DNA of 64,000 nt from positions 5,984,001-6,048,000 of the forward strand of contig CAWIAD010000002.1 in the NCBI GenBank assembly GCA_963833985.1. Direction: 5' to 3'. Below are positions 27,170-36,899 of this stretch, in pieces. Each line of letters begins with the position of its first letter. Within the stretch, counting starts at the first letter, position 1. This DNA is from an uncultured Planctomycetaceae bacterium. GTDB lineage: Bacteria; Planctomycetota; Planctomycetia; Isosphaerales; Isosphaeraceae. The position numbers and the translations under genes are program-made. The notes beneath the pieces were generated by a model. The model was not told where the DNA came from, did not search any database, and saw only the letters and a list, made by a program, of their open reading frames with translations.

Positions 27170-28248
27170 ATGCCCATGAACATTGTCGAACATCGGGCCG
27201 CGAGCGTTTCGCCCTCCGGGACAGAAGAAGTTCCGGACGAAACGCTCGACTTCATCCGCTCGGTACGCCAGCGCGTGGGGACGGTGGTCGTCGGCCAGGA
27301 TGCCGTCGTCGAACGGCTGCTCGTGGCCCTCTTCACCGGCGGCCACCTGCTCTTGCAAGGGGTTCCCGGGCTGGCCAAGACGCTGCTGGTCTCCGTGCTC
27401 TCGAAGACGATCGACCTCCATTTCGCCCGCATCCAGTTCACCGTCGATCTGCTGCCATCAGATATCCTCGGCTCGGAGATCCTCGACCAGCGCACCAATG
27501 ATTTCCGGATCCACAAGGGACCGATCTTCACGAACCTGCTGCTGGCCGACGAGATCAACCGGGCCGCGCCCAAGGTGCAGAGCGCGCTTGCTGGAGGCCA
27601 TGCAGGAGCGGCGTGTCACGATCGGCAACGAGACGTTCAAGCTCCCCGCACCGTTCCTGGTGATCGCCACCCAGAACCCGATCGAGCAGAGCGGCACGTT
27701 CGAGCTGCCCGAAGCGCAGCTCGACCGCTTCATGCTCTGTCACCGGCTCGACTATCCGACTCCTGAGGAAGAGAAGGAGATCCTCAAGCGCAACGCCGCC
27801 CTGGGCGTGCGCCGCGAGGATCGCGGGAGCCGTCGCACGTACCGAATTCGACGCCCTGGAGGGCGGCCCGGTCGCGACGCACGGAAGAGCTCGTGCGGGC
27901 GATGGAGGCCGTGCACGAGGTCTACGTCAGCGAGACCTTCACCGATCACGTCGTCGAGATCGTCAAGCGGACGCCGCACACACCCCGCTCTGAGCTTGGG
28001 GCAAGCCCGCGCGCGGGATCGCGCTGGTCAAGGGTTCGCGTGCCCGCGCCTTGATCCACGGCCGCAACTACGTGATTCCCGAGGACCTCTTCGCCCTGGC
28101 CGAAGACGTGATCCTGCACCGCATCCGTCTGAGCTACGAGGCACTTGCCGACGGCCTGACCGGAGCCGAAGTGCTCAAGGAGATCCTCGGCCCCTTTGGT
28201 CCGGCGCCCGCGCCGCGGACCGCAACGCCGAATGGCAGTGTGCGATAG
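27170..28248 (+). CDS. moxR: MoxR family AAA+ ATPase (several frameshifts)
   Basis: GHLLLQGVPGLAKT Walker A, RIQFTVDLLPSDI, LLADEINRAAPKVQSA, ATQNPIEQSGTFELPEAQLDRF spread over several frames. Confidence 0.9.
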
Positions 28249-28305
28249 CAAGAAGGTTCCTTGAGCGGTCGGTGCGGTGAACCGTCCCGTCCCCGGTCCC
28301 TTGAA

Positions 28306-29188
28306 ATGACGTCGCCGGAGCACCCCATTGGAAGGGCAGATTCAGAGCCACGACCTCCTCGATTCGCGGCAGTTCCAGCTGGCCGTGAAGCGGCTGGCCG
28401 ACAGCCTGAGCTACGGCACCGACCGCTCGCCATTCCTTGGCGCGGGGATCGAGTATGTCCAGTCGCGGCCTTACCAGTACGGCGACCCGATCAAGCTGAT
28501 CGACTGGAAGGTGACCGCGCGCACCCGCAGGGTGCACGTCAAGGAGTACGAGGCGCCCAAGCGGATGCCCGTCTACCTGCTCGTGGACACCTCGGCGTCG
28601 ATGACGATCAGCTCGCACCACCCGAGCAAGTACGAGACGGCCGTCTTCCTGGCTGGCGGCCTGGCCCTGGCGTGCCTGGAGCGGATCAGCCCGTGGGTCT
28701 CCTGGGTGTCGGCGGCCAGAACCTGCACGTGCGGCCCAGCCTCTCGAAAGACCAGGTGATGCAGTGGCTGCACAAGCTGCGGACGCTACCGCTACGACGA
28801 GCCGACCTCCCTGGGAGCGCGGCTGGTCGAGCTGATTCCCAGCCTGACCCAGCGCGTGCTGGTGATCGTTCTCAGCGACCTTCACGACCCTCGCGCCTTG
28901 CCCGCCCTGCGCCGGCTCGTGCAGCAGCATGACGCCGTGGTGCTCCAGGTGCGGGACCCGGCCGAGGACCGACTTCACGGTGTGGGCTTCGTCCGCGGCC
29001 GCGAGGCCGAGACCGGCCGCCCGTTCGTTGTCCGGGGCCGGGCGCGGTGGCTCGATCAGGATCGGATCAGTGATGAGTTGAAGCGGGACGGCATCGATCA
29101 CCTGCTGATCGAGACGGACCGGCCATTCGTGTCGCGTCTGCGCCAGTTCTTCAAGCATCGCAACCTGCTGGGGCGAGGAGCGCGCTAG
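28306..29188 (+). CDS. DUF58 domain protein (frameshifted)
   Basis: [52 protein letters not shown] across ORFs 28328..28759 and 28856..29188. Confidence 0.88.
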
Positions 29189-29190
29189 CG

Positions 29191-30094
29191 ATGTTCACTC
29201 GCCGCCGCTGGGCAGGATGGCTGACTGGCTGCTTCTTGCAGGGCGTTCTCCGGCTCCTTGCGGCCCATGCCGGACCGCCGGCAGAAGCCGCGTCCGACGC
29301 GCACCTGAGCGTCGGGATGACAGGCCAGATCGACCAGCTCGTACTCCCCGGCTCCGAGCTCGAAGTCCGGCCGCTGGAGGACCGCCGCGCTCCATTCGTC
29401 TTGCGTATCACGGACGTTTACCCGCACGGCTCGGCGTTCCGGTACGACCTGGTTTACTACGGGCTCGAGCCGGGCCGGTACGATCTGCGGAACTACCTGA
29501 GGCGGAAGGACGGCTCGGCCCTGGGTGAGCTGCCGCCCGTGCTGGTGCAGGTTGAGCCGATCTTGCCGCCCGGTCAGGTCGAGCCCAGCCCGCTGGAGCT
29601 GGCGCCTTCGCCCCGGCTGGGAGGCTATCGCTGGCTGCTCGCGCTGGGCGGTTCGCTCTGGTGCGCGGGCCTGGTGGCGATTGTGGTGCTCGGCCGGCGC
29701 AGGGTGAGTGAGGCCGTATCGAACGCCGGCAAACCGGCGACACTGGCTGACCGGCTCAGGCCCCTGGTCGACGCGGCCGTCGCCGGCACGCTTGACCAGG
29801 GCCAGCAGGCGGAGCTGGAACGCCTGCTGATCGGCTACTGGCGGAAGCGGCTGGGACTGGAACAGCAGAGCCCGTCAGGCGCCATGGCGGCGCTCCGTGC
29901 TCATCCGCAGGCCGGAGCGCTCATCCGCACGCTCGAGGACTGGCTGCACCGACCCGCGGCCGACAGAGCGCAGAACCGTCGACGTGGCCGCCCTGCTGCG
30001 TCCCTACCAGGACTTGCCCCCCGACGAATCGGCTCCGGTTGGACCGGCCGATCCGGCCCCCGAACCGGCGGCGTCACGTGGAGAACGCCCTTGA
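29191..30094 (+). CDS. Conserved membrane protein of the MoxR/VWA operon (frameshift at about 29975)
   Basis: Signal peptide, beta domain, TM GGYRWLLALGGSLWCAGLVAIVV, helical tail LEDWLHRP; abuts DUF58 and VWA genes. Confidence 0.7.
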
Positions 30095-31013
30095 GCTTCG
30101 CCTATCCCTGGCTGTGCTGGCCTTGCTCGCGGTGCCGCTCCTGCTTCTGGGCTGGGTCTGGAAGCGGACGGGCGGCGGAGTGGCCCTGCCGTTTGACCAC
30201 GGCGGCAACAGACCACGGGACGGGGCTGGGCGATCGTGCTCAAGCTGGCCGACTCACTGCCTGCTCTGGTCCTGGCCCTGGTGATCGTGCTCCTGGCCGG
30301 GCCGCAGCAGCTGAGCGCACCCACGGACCAGGCGCGTGCTCACCAATATCGAATTCTGCGTCGACGTCTCGAGCAGCATGAACACGCCGCTTGGCGACGG
30401 CACGCGCTACGACGCATCGATGAAGGCGATCGATGAGTTCCTGAAGATCCGACAAGGGCGACGCGTTCGGATTGACCTTCTTCGGCAATAACGTGATCCA
30501 CTGGGTTCCGCTGACGAGCGATCCCTCCGCGGTCCGCTGTGCTCCGCCGTTCATGAAGCCCGAGAACGTGCCGATGTGGATGGCCGGCACCATGATCGGC
30601 AAGGCGCTGCTGGCCTGCAAGGAAATCCTCACCAGCCGCGAGGAGGGGGACCGGATGATCATCCTGGTCTCCGACGGCGACAGCTTCGATCTCTCCGGCG
30701 GCAACGACGAGGCCGTTGCGCAGACGCTCCGGCAGAACAACATCACGGTCTACGCGATTCATATCTCCGCCGGCGACATCCCCGGCGAGATCGCCAACGA
30801 TCACCGGCCTGACCGGCGGCGAGGTCTTCCCCGTGGACGACCCGCAGTCGCTCCAGGCGGTCTTCCGGCGGATCGATGCCATGAAGCGCGACCCGGCTCG
30901 AGAAGACGGCGTCGGAGCTACTCGACGACTTCGCTCCCTTCTGCATGGCCGGGCTGGTCCTCCTCGGGCTGACCGGCCTGACCCTCTTCGGGCTGAGGTA
31001 CACGCCATGGTGA
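30091..31013 (+). CDS. BatA-like VWA domain membrane protein (multiple frameshifts)
   Basis: Start TTG SFAYPW; LLAGPQ; MIDAS VDVSSSM; GTMIGKAL; ILVSDGDS; C-terminal GLRYTPW*. Confidence 0.8.
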
Positions 31014-32083
31014 GCCAGTCTGCCGTGTCTCCCACGAGCTGGCCGCGGCCGCCATGGCGCTGCTTGCGGCCATGGCCGAACTGCTGCACGCGCGCCGCTG
31101 CCGTCGACTTGCCCGTCTGGCCTTCGGCCCAGACCATCGGCCCGCGCCCTGGGCGCGCCTGGCCCCGGTACTGCGCGTGCTGGCGATGACCGCGCTGGCC
31201 TGGGGTCTGGTGACGCTGCTGGAGCTTCCGCCCAAGATGCATGTTGCCGAGACCGTGCCCGATAACGAGCGCCGGCACGTCTTGATCGTGCTCGACGTCT
31301 CGCCCAGCATGCGTCTGAAGGACGCCGGCCCGAACGCCGACCAGGCCGGATGAAGCGCGCGGCCGACGTCATGGAATCGTTCCTTCAGCGGATCCCGGTG
31401 GAGCTGTACCTGGTCTCGGTCGTGGCCTGCTACAACGGCGCCAAGCCCGTCGTGGTCGACACAAAGGACCTGGAAGTGGTCCGCAACATCTTCGGCGACC
31501 TGCCCATGCATTATGCCTTTCCGGCCGGCAAGACCGATCTATTCTCGGGCCTGGCGGAAGCCGTCAGGATCGCCCAGCCCTGGCAGCCGAAGAGCACCCT
31601 GCTCTTGCTGCTCTCTGACGGCGACACCGTGCCCGCGACCGGCATGCCCAGGATGCCCGCCTCGATCGCCGACGTGCTGATCGTGGGCGTGGGCGACCCC
31701 CGCAGGGCACGTTCATCGACGGCAGGATGTCGCGGCAAGATCGCAATCGACCCTGCGCCAGATCGCCGCCCGGCTGGGCGGCATCTATCACGACGGCAAC
31801 GCCAAGCACCTCGGTACCGCAGCTCCTGGGCCGTCTGACCATGATCCCCCGCAAGAGCGCCTTCGAGCGGCTGACCCGCCGCGAATACGCCCTCATGGCA
31901 TGCGGCTGCGGTGCGCTGGTGCTGGCTTTCTTGCCCCTTCTACTCCACTACCACGGCACGCGCTGGAAGCCGGGAGTGCATGCCACCGGCCGAACGGCAA
32001 CACGCCGCCAACGCCAGCGCGGCCACCAGGTGTCAGCCCTGCACCCGCAGGCATCGCCATCGGCCGCACTTCAGCGGATTTGA
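31007..32083 (+). CDS. BatB-like VWA domain membrane protein (multiple frameshifts)
   Basis: MIDAS LDVSPSM, GKTDLFSG, LLSDGDT, IVGVGD; TM segments at both ends. Confidence 0.8.
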
Positions 32084-32187
32084 GTATCCGCTGGAATGGG
32101 AAAACGCTACTTTTGTAAGAGACACTTCCCGAAGGCCGGCAGCCCGGGTGAGTCAATGGTGGATCCACTGAGCTGAAAGGGGACTCC

Positions 32188-32910
32188 ATGAGAACTTTCG
32201 GACTTCTCGCCTGGCTGATGATTCCCGTTCTGGCCGGGGCTTACCACTACGGGCCCGGCCAGGAAAAGCTCCGGCTTGACGATGTTTCCCGGCTGCTCGC
32301 CGAGGCCGACACGCTCGCGGCCCACGAGAAGTGGTCCGAGGCATCCTCGCGGTATGAGAAGGCACTGGCTCTGTTGCCTCCCGGCCGGCTTGACGAGGCG
32401 CGGTGGGTGCGCCTGCAAAGAGCCAAGGTGCAGATGTTCGACCGGCAGTTGCCGGAGGCGACCGCTGCGCTCAAGGAACTGGCCGATCAACTGGAAGCGG
32501 ACAGGTCGGCTGACCCGAAACTCCGCGACGACGTTCATGCGGCTCTGGCGAATTCCCAGTATTACATGACCTGGCTGATGCGTCTGGAAGGTCTCGGCGC
32601 GGCGGACTGGGAGCCCGAGATCGAGAATTCCCGCCAGACCTTCCGCATGCTCGCCGAGCAGGCGGAGGCGCGCGGTGAAACCGTCGCGGCCACCAAGCAT
32701 CGCAAGGACCTGGAAAGCACGATCCGGCTGTCGCGGATGGACCTGGCCCAGCTTCAGGGGTTAGACCTGCCCAGGCAGTGACAGGGCTGCAAGAGCGGCC
32801 AGTCTGGCCGCGGCAATGGCAAGGGTAAGGGTAAGTCGAAGAGCTCCTCCAAAGACAAGGACGCCCGGGGCGCTGGGGCCGGCCCGCCACCCGATGATTC
32901 AGGATCGTGA
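32188..32910 (+). CDS. BatC-like TPR/helical protein; candidate selenoprotein (in-frame TGA 32779-32781, UQGC motif; 197 aa to the TGA, 240 aa with read-through)
   Basis: N-terminal hydrophobic anchor; TPR-like helices; after the TGA the frame stays open for QGCKSGQSGRGNGKGKGKSKSSSKDKDARGAGAGPPPDDSGS*; SECIS-like hairpin downstream. Confidence 0.7.
32788..32815 (+). promoter_or_regulatory. Candidate bacterial SECIS element
   Basis: Stem GCGGCCA (32795-32801) / TGGCCGC (32805-32811), loop GTC starting 20 nt after the TGA; possible lower pairing TGC/GCA. Confidence 0.65.
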
Positions 32911-33032
32911 GCGAGCCGATCAGGACAGGAAATCCTCACGGAGCACGAGGGGACGGGCCGCTCCACGCAACGCGTGGCGCTGCCCCTGGGCTCCGCGAGC
33001 CGTTTTATGGTTGAATGAAGGACACCCCTGCC

Positions 33033-36000
33033 ATGCACCGGTTTCTCGAGCGGGCCGCTCATTCTCTGGTCGCCCTCATGTTCGTGGCACTTTCTGGCGC
33101 GCGCGGTGAGGCCGCTGGGCAGTCTCCTGCGAAAGCGCCCGGCCAGCCCCAGGGGGCAGCCGCGCCCGGGTTACCGGATGACGTGTTCGCAGCCGCGCCG
33201 GTGCTCTCACAGGAAGAGCAGCAGAAGCAGCAGCAGCGGATGCAGAAGATTCAGCAGTTGAACTTCGATCGCCGGCCCTCGTCGATCCTCAAGGCGTGGG
33301 CCACACCCCGCGAGCTGGCCCTCGAGGAGGCAAACAGCGAGGACGCGAACGCGGCACCGGGCGTGCTCTCGCGCCGGGCCAGGCCCGGTCGAGTGGCGGG
33401 CGAGGTGGCGTCCTCGGCAGCTTCCGCAAACGCCGAACCGGCGGCACCCGACCCGTTCGACCGCGAGCTGAAGGGCTTCCAGCGCGACGTGACACTGGGG
33501 GACTGGCCAGCCGTGAAGGCATTTCTTCGCGGACTGGAGAATCAGGAGGGCAAGGCGGCCTACAGCCGGCTGCTCCAGGCGCTGGCCAGCGGCCCGACGG
33601 GCGCCCAGGGCATGATGCCGGGACAGGTCCAGAACATGCCGCCCGGCATGCGCATGCAGATGCAGGCTCAGATGCAGATGCAGCCGCAGCAGTACATGAT
33701 GGAACGCAATGTCTTTTCCAGTGAGGATGTCATTCGGCTGGCCTGGGTGGCGCCTCACGGCCTGGAGAAGGAGCACCTGGCTGGCCTGGGCCAGCTCCTC
33801 CGCCAGTCGATCGATCAGGGGAACGCCGTCGAGGATTTCCTGACCCGGGTGCGGGCCGAACTGGGCAAGCCCGCGCGTGAGGCGGCCGTTTCCCGGCGGC
33901 AGGCCGCCAGGGTGCTGTTCGCCGCCAGTTGCGCGGTGGAGGCCGGTCCGTTTCTTCCCGACCCCGCAACAGCCGTCAAGGACGACGATCGCGAGGCACT
34001 CAACCTGCTGGCCCGGCATTACCTGGCCCTGCACGAGCGGGACAAGAAAGCGGTCCACCTGGAGCAGGCCTGGTCGGTGACCCAGGACGCGCTCGCCGCC
34101 GGCAAGGTCGACCGCGAGCAGAAGGACGACGCCATTCGCCGCGCTGTCGAGCTGGTGCCCAGGATCAAGCAGGCGCTCGGCCGGGCCTGGCTCGAGGGCA
34201 GCTTCACCGGCCGGCCGGATCGGGGCATGGAGATCCTCGCGGCCATCGGCGGTGCCACCGCGCAAGGCCTGCAAACACACCCGTTTGATCCGGACTACCG
34301 CACCCGGTCGCTCGAATTGCAAAGTCTGGCGGTCGAGGCCCTCCTGCGTATCGCGCCTGCGCGTGGCCGAGAGTGGGCCAGGAACCTGCAACTGCTGGCG
34401 GAGGGCTGGCTCAAGGAGGCCGAGTTCTCCCACAAGTTTGACTTCTCGACGAGCCTGGGGCCGCGGATGCAGTTCGACCCGTTCGGCAATGTGTACTACT
34501 CGAACTACGACGCGATGTCGCCCGAGATGATGATGCAGCGCCAGGGGAACATGCCCCGCGCCCTGTTGACGGGCGACGTGGTCAAGCACCGGCCCGGCGA
34601 CGCGTGGCTGGCACTGCTGGACGAGGGGATCAGGCCCCGCTTCGCGACCGTCTTCGCGCAGCTCTATCTCAAGGTCAACGAGGAGGAGAAGGCGTTTCCC
34701 TACATCGAGCGGCTCTCCGCCACGCACCCGCGCCAGGCCAGGGAGCTGGCCGAGGAGTTTTTGAAAACCTGGACCAAGAACCACGACCCCAACTCACAGC
34801 AGATGCGCCGCAGCCGGTTCTTCTACGTCTACGGCTTCGAGTCGCGGGCCGAGGGGATACCGCTGACACGGTCGAAGCAGGAGCGCAACATTGTCGAGCT
34901 CGGCGAGTGGGTGAAGCGGCTGCGTAAGCTGCCGATCGGTGAGCTGGACGAGAAGCTGCTCACGGGTGCCTTCACCGCCTGCCATAGCCCTGCCGAGGTC
35001 TACCGGCTCGATGCGATCAACCGGGTTTTCGGCTCGTTTGACGCCCTCAAGCCGGTGACCCTGGCGGAGCTGATCCAGCAGATGCGGGGCAATCTCGTCG
35101 GCGTATGGCGCAGGCCCGACGAGCAGGAGAAGCAGAAGACGAAGCGCCGCGAGAAGGATATTCGCGGTGAGGTCCTGCGCGGATACGAGGTCGCCCGCTC
35201 CGTGGTCGACCAGGGGCTGAAGCGCTATCCGGACCACTGGGCGCTCGTGCTCGCACGGGCGTCGATCCTCCATGACGAGAACAACTACCGGCAGGAGATC
35301 GAGAAATCGTCGTCCTTCGCGCCCCGCCGGCAACAGGCGCTCGCCGAGTTCCAGAAGTCGGCACGTCTCTACCTCGCCGCGGCACCCGGCTTGCCGCAGG
35401 ACGAGCAGAACACCCAGGCCTTCGAGATCTGGTTCAATGCCGCACTGGGTGCCTGCGACCTCCAGCATATCACCGAGGAGACGCTGGCCGACGAGCGGCA
35501 AATGCCCCTCATCCGCCAGGCGCTCGAAAGCCTTCGGGGTGAGGACCGCGAGCGGCACCTGAGCAAGTTCGCCAACGCCCTGTTCACCCGACTGAGCGCC
35601 GTCAAGCCGTCGGTCAAGGTGCGCTACCTCCGGGCCGGCATCGAGATCGTCGGCGACCACCCACAGGCCCATGACGCCCGCAAGGTTTACGACTACTACA
35701 AGGACCTGGTCACCGAGATCAAGCTCGACACCGTCGTTGACGGCAGCGACGTGGTCGGCCACGAGAAGCCGTTCGGCGTTTTCGTCAACCTCCGGCATAC
35801 CCGCGAGATCGAGCGCGAATCGGGAGGGTTTGGCCGCTACCTGCAAAACCAGAACAACTCCGGTTCTTATTATTATAATTTCGGGCGTCCGCTGGAAAAC
35901 TACCGCGACAAGTTCCAGGAGATCGTCAAGCAGGCGCTTCAGGAGCAGTTTGAGATCCTCTCGGTGACGTTCCAGGACGATAAGGTGAATTCCCGGGCCA

Positions 36001-36899
36001 CTACTGACTACGGCTGGCGGGTGACGCCTTATGCGTATCTCCTGCTGAAGGCGAGGAGTGGGAAGGTTGACAAGATCGCACCCTTACGGCTCGACCTCGA
36101 CTTCATGGACACCTCGGGGTACGTCATCCTGCCCATCGAGTCGCCCACGATCCCCATCGACGCGGCACCTGCCTCGGGTGCGGCGAGACCCTACGAGAAG
36201 CTTCAGGTCACCCAGATCCTCGACGAGCGTCAGGCGAAGGACGGCAAGCTGATCCTGGAGATCAAGGCGACCGCCCGGGGCCTGGTCCCCGAGCTGCAGC
36301 AAATCCTCGACGTGCATGCCGAGGGGTTCACCATCGACAAGACGGACGACCAGGGGCTGTCGGTCTCGAAGTTCGATCCCGAAAGCCAGGCGAACCTCGT
36401 CGACTCGGAGCGTACCTGGCTGGTCCACTACCTCGGCGCCCCGATCGAGAACGAGGCGCCCAGAACGTTCAAGTACCCGCCCGCCCGGGTGAATACCGCG
36501 GAGATGGTGTATCAACGATACGCGGATGCCGACCTGGCGAAGGTTGGACCGGAAGTGGTCCTCGAGTCACGCTACGGACAGCCCACCTATGCCTGGGCGT
36601 GGTGGCTCGCGGCTGGAGTCTTGCTGGCGGCTCTCGCCGCGGCCGGAGTGACTGCCCTTTTCCGTTCGTTCTCCAGGCGCGTCAAGCCCTCAAGGTACCA
36701 GGTTCCGGAAGTGGTCACGCCGTTCACGGTGCTCGGCCTGCTGCGCGCGATCGCCTCCCACGACGGCCTCGCGGCGACTCAGCAGCAAGAGATCGCCCGC
36801 TCGATTCAGGAGCTGGAACGGCATTACTTCGCCGACGCGAACGGCAGCGCGCTGGACCTCAAGACCATTGCGGAGACGTGGGTTGCCAGGGCGTCGTGA
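33033..36899 (+). CDS. Large exported helical/TPR-like protein with C-terminal TM anchor, last gene of the MoxR/VWA operon (BatD-like position)
   Basis: About 1288 aa; GAAGGA RBS; signal peptide; M/Q-rich low-complexity insert; TM WAWWLAAGVLLAALAAAGVTALF. Confidence 0.8.
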   Translation: MHRFLERAAHSLVALMFVALSGARGEAAGQSPAKAPGQPQGAAAPGLPDDVFAAAPVLSQEEQQKQQQRMQKIQQLNFDRRPSSILKAWATPRELALEEANSEDANAAPGVLSRRARPGRVAGEVASSAASANAEPAAPDPFDRELKGFQRDVTLGDWPAVKAFLRGLENQEGKAAYSRLLQALASGPTGAQGMMPGQVQNMPPGMRMQMQAQMQMQPQQYMMERNVFSSEDVIRLAWVAPHGLEKEHLAGLGQLLRQSIDQGNAVEDFLTRVRAELGKPAREAAVSRRQAARVLFAASCAVEAGPFLPDPATAVKDDDREALNLLARHYLALHERDKKAVHLEQAWSVTQDALAAGKVDREQKDDAIRRAVELVPRIKQALGRAWLEGSFTGRPDRGMEILAAIGGATAQGLQTHPFDPDYRTRSLELQSLAVEALLRIAPARGREWARNLQLLAEGWLKEAEFSHKFDFSTSLGPRMQFDPFGNVYYSNYDAMSPEMMMQRQGNMPRALLTGDVVKHRPGDAWLALLDEGIRPRFATVFAQLYLKVNEEEKAFPYIERLSATHPRQARELAEEFLKTWTKNHDPNSQQMRRSRFFYVYGFESRAEGIPLTRSKQERNIVELGEWVKRLRKLPIGELDEKLLTGAFTACHSPAEVYRLDAINRVFGSFDALKPVTLAELIQQMRGNLVGVWRRPDEQEKQKTKRREKDIRGEVLRGYEVARSVVDQGLKRYPDHWALVLARASILHDENNYRQEIEKSSSFAPRRQQALAEFQKSARLYLAAAPGLPQDEQNTQAFEIWFNAALGACDLQHITEETLADERQMPLIRQALESLRGEDRERHLSKFANALFTRLSAVKPSVKVRYLRAGIEIVGDHPQAHDARKVYDYYKDLVTEIKLDTVVDGSDVVGHEKPFGVFVNLRHTREIERESGGFGRYLQNQNNSGSYYYNFGRPLENYRDKFQEIVKQALQEQFEILSVTFQDDKVNSRATTDYGWRVTPYAYLLLKARSGKVDKIAPLRLDLDFMDTSGYVILPIESPTIPIDAAPASGAARPYEKLQVTQILDERQAKDGKLILEIKATARGLVPELQQILDVHAEGFTIDKTDDQGLSVSKFDPESQANLVDSERTWLVHYLGAPIENEAPRTFKYPPARVNTAEMVYQRYADADLAKVGPEVVLESRYGQPTYAWAWWLAAGVLLAALAAAGVTALFRSFSRRVKPSRYQVPEVVTPFTVLGLLRAIASHDGLAATQQQEIARSIQELERHYFADANGSALDLKTIAETWVARAS

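Follow-up and report, generated by a model that had tools for sequence, protein, structure and literature searches.

Genes and features at the locus

The window is a stretch of 64,000 nucleotides taken from a genome assembly (G000, 10.2 Mb, 96% complete) whose nearest named relatives are Isosphaeraceae. Its central part carries a cluster of genes, all on the forward strand, with the following features:

27242..28212, + strand: MoxR AAA+ ATPase gene, frameshifted in the source assembly (PF07726; tblastn with an intact homolog)
28328..29188, + strand: DUF58 protein gene, frameshifted in the source assembly (PF01882)
29191..29955, + strand: gene of a conserved exported membrane protein of about 270-300 aa, with no family match (conserved locus)
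30156..31010, + strand: BatA-like VWA protein gene, frameshifted in the source assembly (intact homolog, VWA_2 E 2.4e-11)
31054..31975, + strand: BatB-like VWA protein gene, frameshifted in the source assembly (intact homolog, VWA_2 E 3.7e-12)
32175..32182, + strand: purine-rich site resembling a ribosome-binding site, 5 nt upstream of the ATG (sequence)
32188..32910, + strand: gene of a putative 240-aa selenoprotein (anchor, TPR domain and Sec tail) in the BatC slot (read-through of the ORF; homologs of 230-250 aa)
32191..32247, + strand: hydrophobic signal anchor or signal peptide, residues 2-20 (predicted helix 2-20)
32254..32760, + strand: TPR-like helical domain, residues 23-191 (pLDDT 94-98 over residues 31-190)
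32779..32781, + strand: in-frame TGA, very probably read as selenocysteine, U198 (TGA 58 and Cys codon 22 in the best 80 of at least 86 loci)
32785..32907, + strand: predicted disordered Gly/Lys/Ser-rich tail ending in the conserved motif DARGA..GPPPDxSGS (pLDDT below 50 for residues 200-229 and 237-240)
32788..32790, + strand: codon of the partner residue Cys201, forming UxxC in the source lineage (sequence; the partner position varies across the family)
32795..32811, + strand: putative SECIS upper hairpin of 6-7 bp, with an AGUCU loop starting 19 nt past the UGA (folding and covariation in relatives)
33015..36899, + strand: gene of a 1294-aa exported protein whose C-terminal 400 aa resemble BatD (language-model features)

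From the ATG at 32188 the frame runs to the in-frame TGA, continues for 42 open codons and closes at a second TGA (32908-32910); the read-through product has 240 aa and contains the motif U198-Q-G-C201. A sequence-only reading of this DNA had claimed both this open frame and the U-x-x-C motif, and had called the extension coding-like. Our recount bore out the frame and the motif, and the codon-usage figures were exact, with 31 of the 42 codons ending in G or C and 6 of 7 Lys codons being AAG. No sigma-70 promoter was found near the gene. As argued below from comparison of relatives, the first TGA is very probably a selenocysteine codon within the 240-aa protein.

We noticed that moxR, the DUF58 gene and both VWA genes (27242-31975) are frameshifted, while the putative selenoprotein gene and the gene of 1294 aa are intact. 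The frameshifts are probably indel errors of long-read sequencing; alternatively, the operon may be decaying. As four upstream genes are disrupted in this assembly, a sequencing error at the TGA needed to be excluded. One public DNA run matched a small share of the stretch, its reads in this region spanning 31900-32037, upstream of the TGA, and no RNA run with the stretch was listed.

Conservation of the TGA and of the tail

The site was inspected in two sets of relatives. At the protein level we examined the best 120 of 2080 homologs, of which 98 have CxxC at the site and 22 stop exactly one residue before it, the database entry of the source gene being among the latter. The suspicion that members of this family are annotated as truncated proteins was thus correct for those 22 among the best 120 of 2080. 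Public records name the Cys forms 'hypothetical' or 'tetratricopeptide repeat protein'; one Cys form from a cultured carrier is OJF2_31290 of Aquisphaera giovannonii.

At the DNA level, the best 80 of at least 86 GTDB loci carry TGA (58) or a Cys codon (22) at the site, in the forms UxxC (35), U-x-x-T-U (23), CxxC (21) and CxxN (1), and none of these 80 has TAA or TAG there. The terminal stops of the 58 TGA forms in this set are mixed (TGA 22, TAA 19, TAG 17). This pairing, in which 58 of 58 stop forms at the site are TGA while the terminal stops of the same best 80 of at least 86 loci vary, supports selenocysteine. Moreover, all 58 reach a G-[SHNAR] end 33-42 codons past the UGA, as the Cys forms do, and 57 of the 58 keep a terminal Pro/Asp motif (again in the best 80 of at least 86 loci); the C-terminal motif is conserved in both TGA and Cys forms. 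The sequence-only reading had proposed to look for homologs with Cys or TGA at this position and for a conserved tail, and both were found; homologs ending here with TAA or TAG and lacking the tail, which it had named as the opposite outcome, were absent from these 80 loci.

The Sec/Cys position is one of 8 invariant columns of the alignment and is located where the fold ends. Close relatives with 79% identity carry Cys. On a quick FastTree phylogeny of 79 rows, made after 2 frameshifted loci had been removed and with many poorly resolved forks, TGA and Cys forms interleave, which takes 8 or more changes between the two in whichever direction. Record labels place the carriers mostly in Planctomycetota, with a few in Verrucomicrobiota. 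In an even sample of the phylum (251 genomes, filtered at 90% completeness), the gene is present in 31 genomes, and 24 of these 31 carriers have the in-frame TGA. One complete genome (G060) holds four paralogs (L105, L111, L118 and L120), with two Cys forms and one Sec form among those read.

A SECIS-like hairpin downstream of the TGA

The hairpin lies exactly where the sequence-only reading had put it. Its GUC begins 20 nt past the TGA, or the loop begins at 19 nt if read as the 5-nt AGUCU. With 6-7 bp, a loop at 19-20 nt and -12.0 to -13.4 kcal/mol, it fits the published consensus for bacterial SECIS elements, given as a 3-9-nt loop with G at position 1-2, a stem of 4-16 bp, a distance of 16-37 nt from the UGA and an MFE of at most -7.5 (PMC13188914). 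Judged on the source sequence by itself, the hairpin is modest and does not stand out. A piece of 26 nt has a folding energy of -13.4 kcal/mol (z -2.35), but over 52 nt counted from the UGA a competitor is the preferred hairpin (z -1.46), and for 101 nt the z value is 0.26. A ribosome paused on the UGA would presumably mask the 5' arm of that competitor.

The convincing evidence for the putative SECIS is comparative. We applied a strict rule, namely a C-G-closed loop of 4-5 nt with GU at positions 2-3 and a stem of at least 4 bp, located 16-37 nt downstream; a comparable hairpin follows only 174 of the 267,070 TGA triplets of the source genome. Among the best 80 of at least 86 loci, the rule picked up 54 of the 58 TGA forms (UxxC 35/35, UxxTU 19/23), none of the 22 Cys forms, and only 2 of 80 terminal stops. 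The four UxxTU forms without a strict match still have hairpins, with another closing pair or loop. In L057, L058, L068 and L073, a short tandem repeat permits two alternative hairpins 6 nt apart, at 27 and 33 nt from the first UGA.

For covariation we used 51 rows, 40 of them distinct, whose loop has 4 nt; four were re-registered and one was added by hand. The GGUC loop, which we take to be that of E. coli fdhF, is invariant in these rows. Although rows picked for having such a hairpin bias the pairing upward, 91% of cells are paired, a value that 0 of 500 shuffles equalled and that slid controls (28-61%) did not approach, and compensatory changes on both sides occur in 6 of 6 pairs. The covarying hairpin that the sequence-only reading had anticipated is therefore present, in TGA forms (54/58) and not in Cys forms (0/22) of the best 80 of at least 86 loci. 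The source hairpin itself belongs to a subtype with a 5-nt loop (AGUCU, GGUCU or GGUCC), and the SECIS of the source genome's own FdhA has a 6-bp stem and a GGUCU loop at 18 nt.

Selenocysteine machinery

A genome that reads UGA in this way should hold selA, selB, selC and selD, as the sequence-only reading had pointed out, and all four were found in the source genome, which has one tRNA-Sec. Its SelD and FdhA themselves have an in-frame UGA with hairpins. For the best 80 of at least 86 loci, selA, tallied by hand, exceeds its cut-off in 55/58 TGA and 12/22 Cys genomes (Fisher p 6.7e-5, with kin counted as though independent), and two of the three TGA genomes without a full selA match have gene fragments. 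A paired test that respects kinship has only 5 independent pairs and was not significant (median p 0.5). In the phylum sample, each of the 24 TGA carriers has selA; the share is 3 of 7 among the remaining carriers and 185 of 251 for the whole sample. In one family of that sample (f4) selA occurs in only 1 of 17 genomes, and all four gene carriers lack the TGA. All five double-TGA genomes tested have a single tRNA-Sec-like match each (E<=1e-8).

We also scanned the source genome loosely for a UGA followed by a hairpin, which gave 233 candidates, mostly false; among the candidates listed, no convincing Sec gene lies at the other MoxR loci of the genome. A few candidates outside the window deserve mention. 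At G000:C2:6157062 (+), a small protein with a hydrophobic stretch has an in-frame TGA, after which come MSGSC and a hairpin of 6 bp, and may be a selenoprotein. At G000:C2:96815 (-), a frame resembling a membrane protein has Cys-TGA with a GUC-loop hairpin 21-22 nt downstream, possibly a CU selenoprotein. The candidates at C2:4615473 (-), with UPFC, and C2:3582117 (+), with UxxG, likely belong to known selenoprotein families, presumably AhpC/TSA-like and arsenite methyltransferase-like, respectively.

Protein architecture

An AlphaFold2 model computed from a 122-row alignment has an N-terminal helix over residues 2-20, a helical domain predicted with confidence over residues 23-191, and a tail whose pLDDT is under 50; it contains no strands. 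The best structural match is the TPR protein LGN (4wng; Z 15.9, rmsd 3.1, 146 aligned), which indicates the TPR fold only, because helical repeats easily score high. Foldseek gave no match at E<=0.001. Sequence searches pointed in the same direction, since Pfam gave only weak TPR matches, with TPR_19 reaching E<=0.01 in 25 members out of 122, and a search of PDB sequences likewise gave only weak TPR matches (best E 0.003). The TPR-like character proposed from the sequence thus agrees with both model and profiles. No homology was found between this family and the BatB-like family.

The proposed membrane anchor was likewise supported by prediction. Across 64 scored members of the best 80 of at least 86 loci, the mean net charge is +1.3 before and -1.3 after the hydrophobic segment, a bias which suggests that the TPR domain and the tail lie outside the cytoplasm.

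A Bat-like operon

In an intact homolog locus, MoxR matches PF07726 (E 1.8e-61) and the DUF58 protein PF01882 (E 1.5e-35), while the two VWA proteins of intact homologs match NF047508 BatA (E 8.5e-14) and NF047506 BatB (E 6e-6), both far below the model cut-off. The slot of the protein at 29191..29955 is, we presume, usually held by DUF4381. A Pfam search found no PF13584 (BatD) match in the 1294-aa protein, but language-model look-alikes of its last 400 aa are named BatD (score 0.90-0.91). Ahead of this BatD-like end, the protein has about 800 residues without a known family, and it is conserved together with the putative selenoprotein gene.

The order MoxR, DUF58, a protein of about 280 aa, VWA, VWA, the putative selenoprotein gene and a protein of about 1300 aa recurs across relatives. 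Within the best 80 of at least 86 loci, many of which lie on short contigs, the downstream gene of about 1300 aa is present in 71 and the VWA genes in 61 and 63. The Bat-like operon with MoxR, DUF58 and VWA genes that had been read from the sequence is thus supported, and its gene order is conserved. This order places the putative selenoprotein gene in the BatC slot; by position and modelled TPR fold, it is a probable BatC equivalent.

Compared with the Bat operon (Bacteroides aerotolerance: MoxR, DUF58, BatA, BatB, the TPR protein BatC, BatD and BatE), the gene order is alike and the parts are similarly membrane-anchored or exported. In contrast, the BatD-like gene here encodes about 1300 aa with a long N-terminal extension, the Bat models score under their cut-off, no conserved BatE-like gene was seen, and the TPR subunit bears a Cys/Sec tail. 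As to the function of Bat proteins, reducing agents partly rescued a bat mutant of B. fragilis (PMC3557215), and batA deletion reduced peroxide survival in Riemerella (PMC11834572).

Variety of the Sec/Cys motif and double-Sec forms

A pattern search collected 124 distinct loci, 90 of them Sec forms and 34 non-Sec. The Sec forms comprise UxxC (54), UxxxU (24) and CU (8), with UxxCC, UxxCCxxxC, UxxU and UxxxxxU once each, and the tail has exactly two Cys/Sec residues in 88 of the 90. The partner residue ranges in position from -1 (CU) to +6, and in roughly one Sec form out of four it is a second Sec. Among the 34 non-Sec loci, 32 carry between 3 and 6 Cys (e.g., CxxCCxxxC) and the remaining two none. 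Of 150 distant representatives, 58 have tails with at least two Cys and 15 have full tails without Cys; another 32 stop at the site, and 45 escaped classification.

The sequence-only reading had taken the UxxC motif as a redox site. The motif is indeed present in the source lineage; a thioredoxin-type active site, on the other hand, was rejected, as the model is all-helical without strands and the motif lies in the low-confidence tail. A thioredoxin-type resolving residue fixed at +3 was likewise rejected, since the partner moves among the 90 Sec forms (UxxC 54, UxxxU 24, CU 8 and four single variants).

The common double-Sec form is UxxTU; such variants had not been noticed in the sequence-only reading. 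Double-Sec genes usually have one hairpin, located 18-21 nt behind the second UGA, which probably serves both UGAs. Its distances from the first and second UGA are 33 and 21 nt in UxxTU, 27 and 18 nt in L165 (UxxU), and 39 and 21 nt in L138 (UxxxxxU), whose first UGA is outside the 16-37 nt of the consensus. In the region about 60 nt past its first UGA, the metagenome locus L145, outside the 124-locus set, has U-S-G-C-U (UxxCU) with two tandem hairpins, one 21 nt past the first UGA and the other 20 nt past the second; each UGA thus has a SECIS of its own, which sets L145 apart from the remaining double-Sec forms. In L169-L176, eight genomes from a single family, the CU dipeptide is followed at 18 nt by a GGUUC loop, and five of the eight have a weaker hairpin.

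A proposed mechanism and its alternatives

We propose that SelB, bound to the GUC-loop hairpin, would insert selenocysteine at UGA 198 and yield the 240-aa selenoprotein, a reading to which we give a probability of about 95% and which agrees with the interpretation put forward from the sequence alone, given the TGA/Cys pairing, the covarying hairpin and the presence of selA, selB, selC and selD. The product is likely to be tethered to the inner membrane, its TPR domain and tail lying beyond the cytoplasm, and to take the place of BatC in an envelope complex of the MoxR/DUF58/VWA/BatD kind. What the residue does there is harder to tell. Our best guess, an even bet, is a flexible periplasmic redox arm, on which Sec and the nearby Cys or second Sec might form a reversible selenenylsulfide or diselenide; the arm might then swap disulfides with clients on the TPR/VWA/BatD scaffold, or act as a redox switch for the complex. 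A selenosulfide in a disordered tail has been proposed for eukaryotic SelS (PMC3628699).

Other explanations start from the decoding of the UGA. The TGA could be an error for TGC or TGT, as four genes upstream are frameshifted in this error-rich assembly and relatives of 79% identity have Cys. The same TGA and the same hairpin are present, however, in the same-genus genomes G007 and G009 and in the metagenome contig L130, which excludes an assembly error at the TGA, and the hairpin is absent from 22 of 22 Cys forms in the best 80 of at least 86 loci; on this comparison, a sequencing error appears largely refuted already and is barely credible. Slightly less remote, and still very improbable, is that the UGA is read as Cys by a tRNA-ReC-like tRNA, or as another residue, or that it is a true stop followed by a vestigial tail. 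In its favour, tRNA-ReC shows an enrichment among genomes that encode UXXU hydrogenases (PMC13582414), and 3 of 58 TGA genomes (best 80 of at least 86 loci) lack a full selA match; yet two of those three misses are fragments, the source genome has a single UCA-anticodon tRNA, and each of the five double-TGA genomes has a single tRNA-Sec-like match. A true stop, moreover, would drift to TAA or TAG and lose tail and hairpin, which no stop-bearing form among the best 80 of at least 86 loci did.

If selenocysteine is inserted, its chemistry may differ from a redox arm. Two Cys/Sec residues in 88 of 90 Sec tails favour a reversible bond, as a two-partner redox bond needs two. Several points speak against the redox arm. 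Part of the family does without the motif, as Cys is lacking from 15 of 150 distant tails and from 2 of 34 non-Sec loci, which shows the chemistry to be an optional extra in some lineages. A partner placed anywhere between -1 and +6 is hard to reconcile with a precise catalytic geometry. No dedicated reductant gene was found among the conserved neighbours, and deletion of bat genes in Leptospira biflexa left survival of oxidative stress unchanged (PMC3557215). The 3-6 Cys of the Cys forms, in patterns such as CxxCCxxxC, look more like a metal site, and the Cys-rich relatives favour the possible, if doubtful, reading that the tail of the same selenoprotein is a metal-ligand arm, whose three to six thiolates (Cys forms) or two soft Se/S donors (Sec forms) would hold a metal, e.g., Cu, Zn or Fe, to be delivered by the MoxR/VWA chaperone machine. 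The MoxR/VWA pair NorQ/NorD reportedly inserts FeB. The CU dipeptides of 8 loci also fit metal binding, since CU is seen in the metal-related selenoproteins SaoL and HgcA and a review describes many Sec sites as predicted metal ligands (PMC13188914). On the other side, the drop to two ligands is explained in part by the hairpin, whose sequence takes the place of the third Cys codon (in the source gene, TGC has become TCT), no metal transporter was found among the conserved neighbours, and Cys-free members exist. It is rather unlikely that the bond is instead structural or regulatory, clamping the tail or, through incomplete read-through, making a selenium-dependent switch between a form of 197 aa and one of 240 aa that has the conserved C-terminal motif. 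The UGA does stand exactly at the border of folded domain and tail, so that a 197-aa product would be able to fold, TGA and Cys forms share the C-terminal motif, and a diselenide in an oxidising compartment would be hard to reduce; but Cys forms cannot switch in this way and nevertheless interleave with Sec forms (at least 8 changes, 79-row tree), and there is no sign that the short form is made.

Relation to known systems

The claim that the family was unrecognised agrees with our searches: no selenoprotein model of NCBIfam 20.0 matched any of 122 members at E<=0.01, and no TPR, MoxR or VWA entry stands among the 119 families in Table 1 of PMC13188914, whose unnamed entries were compared via NCBIfam models only. 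The main texts of BSepDB (PMC13326102) and deep-Sep (PMC12013277) do not mention TPR, MoxR, VWA or planctomycetes. One 'hypothetical' selenoprotein candidate of planctomycete P1 is listed in S9 Table of PMC4807772; its gene is two IDs away from a 3-oxoacyl-ACP synthase, and it is therefore probably a different protein. A literature search, with most subscription journals outside it, found nothing on selenocysteine together with MoxR and von Willebrand, on selenoprotein, Planctomycetota and SECIS combined, or on Sec in Bat proteins. Taken together, the sequence comparisons indicate a real, widespread selenoprotein family with natural double-Sec variants in a Bat-like operon, for which no catalogue entry was found. 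Such a family would add an unusual build to the selenoproteins, a TPR scaffold with a probably exported, disordered Sec arm, and many of its members stand truncated in databases.

With known SelB/SECIS selenoprotein genes the family shares the in-frame UGA, Cys homologs, selABCD and a hairpin 16-37 nt downstream with G in the first two loop positions; it differs by its TPR scaffold, by a Sec located in a disordered tail and by the mobile partner residue. The eukaryotic SELENOS and SELENOK offer an analogy, not a homology, as they combine a single membrane segment, a helical region and a disordered tail with a Sec-Cys pair, and are linked to the AAA+ ATPase p97. Here the link to an AAA+ ATPase, MoxR, comes from gene neighbourhood alone, the Sec is 42 residues from the end rather than penultimate, and the tail, judged by charge bias, is predicted outside the cytoplasm, away from the ATPase. 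As a speculation that we consider doubtful as a whole, planctomycete MoxR/VWA (Bat-like) complexes might be selenium-dependent envelope redox or metal machines, with the TPR subunit as the reactive centre missing from the long-standing 'periplasmic reducing power' model of Bat. The subunit would then be a bacterial counterpart of SELENOS, with a disordered Sec arm tethered to the membrane and coupled to an AAA+ ATPase; evolution would have arrived at it repeatedly, using one Sec or two, and one SECIS would decode two UGAs at most 18 nt apart. As a reactive residue would be placed on a Bat-like complex, the redox model becomes testable through mutation of one codon.

In UXXU Group 4 [NiFeSe] hydrogenases (PMC13582414), too, a single hairpin lies behind two neighbouring UGAs and has been suggested to act on both; a direct test of one SECIS serving two UGAs was not found in our literature search. 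Unlike in those hydrogenases, the spacing here varies within one family (UxxU, UxxTU, UxxCU, UxxxxxU) and the hairpin tracks the second UGA, with L145 having two tandem hairpins and L138 a first UGA 39 nt from the loop. The single- and double-UGA genes of this family, among which the hairpin shifts its position, offer a natural test of the reach and double action of a SECIS, which is also relevant to the engineering of proteins with two Sec residues.
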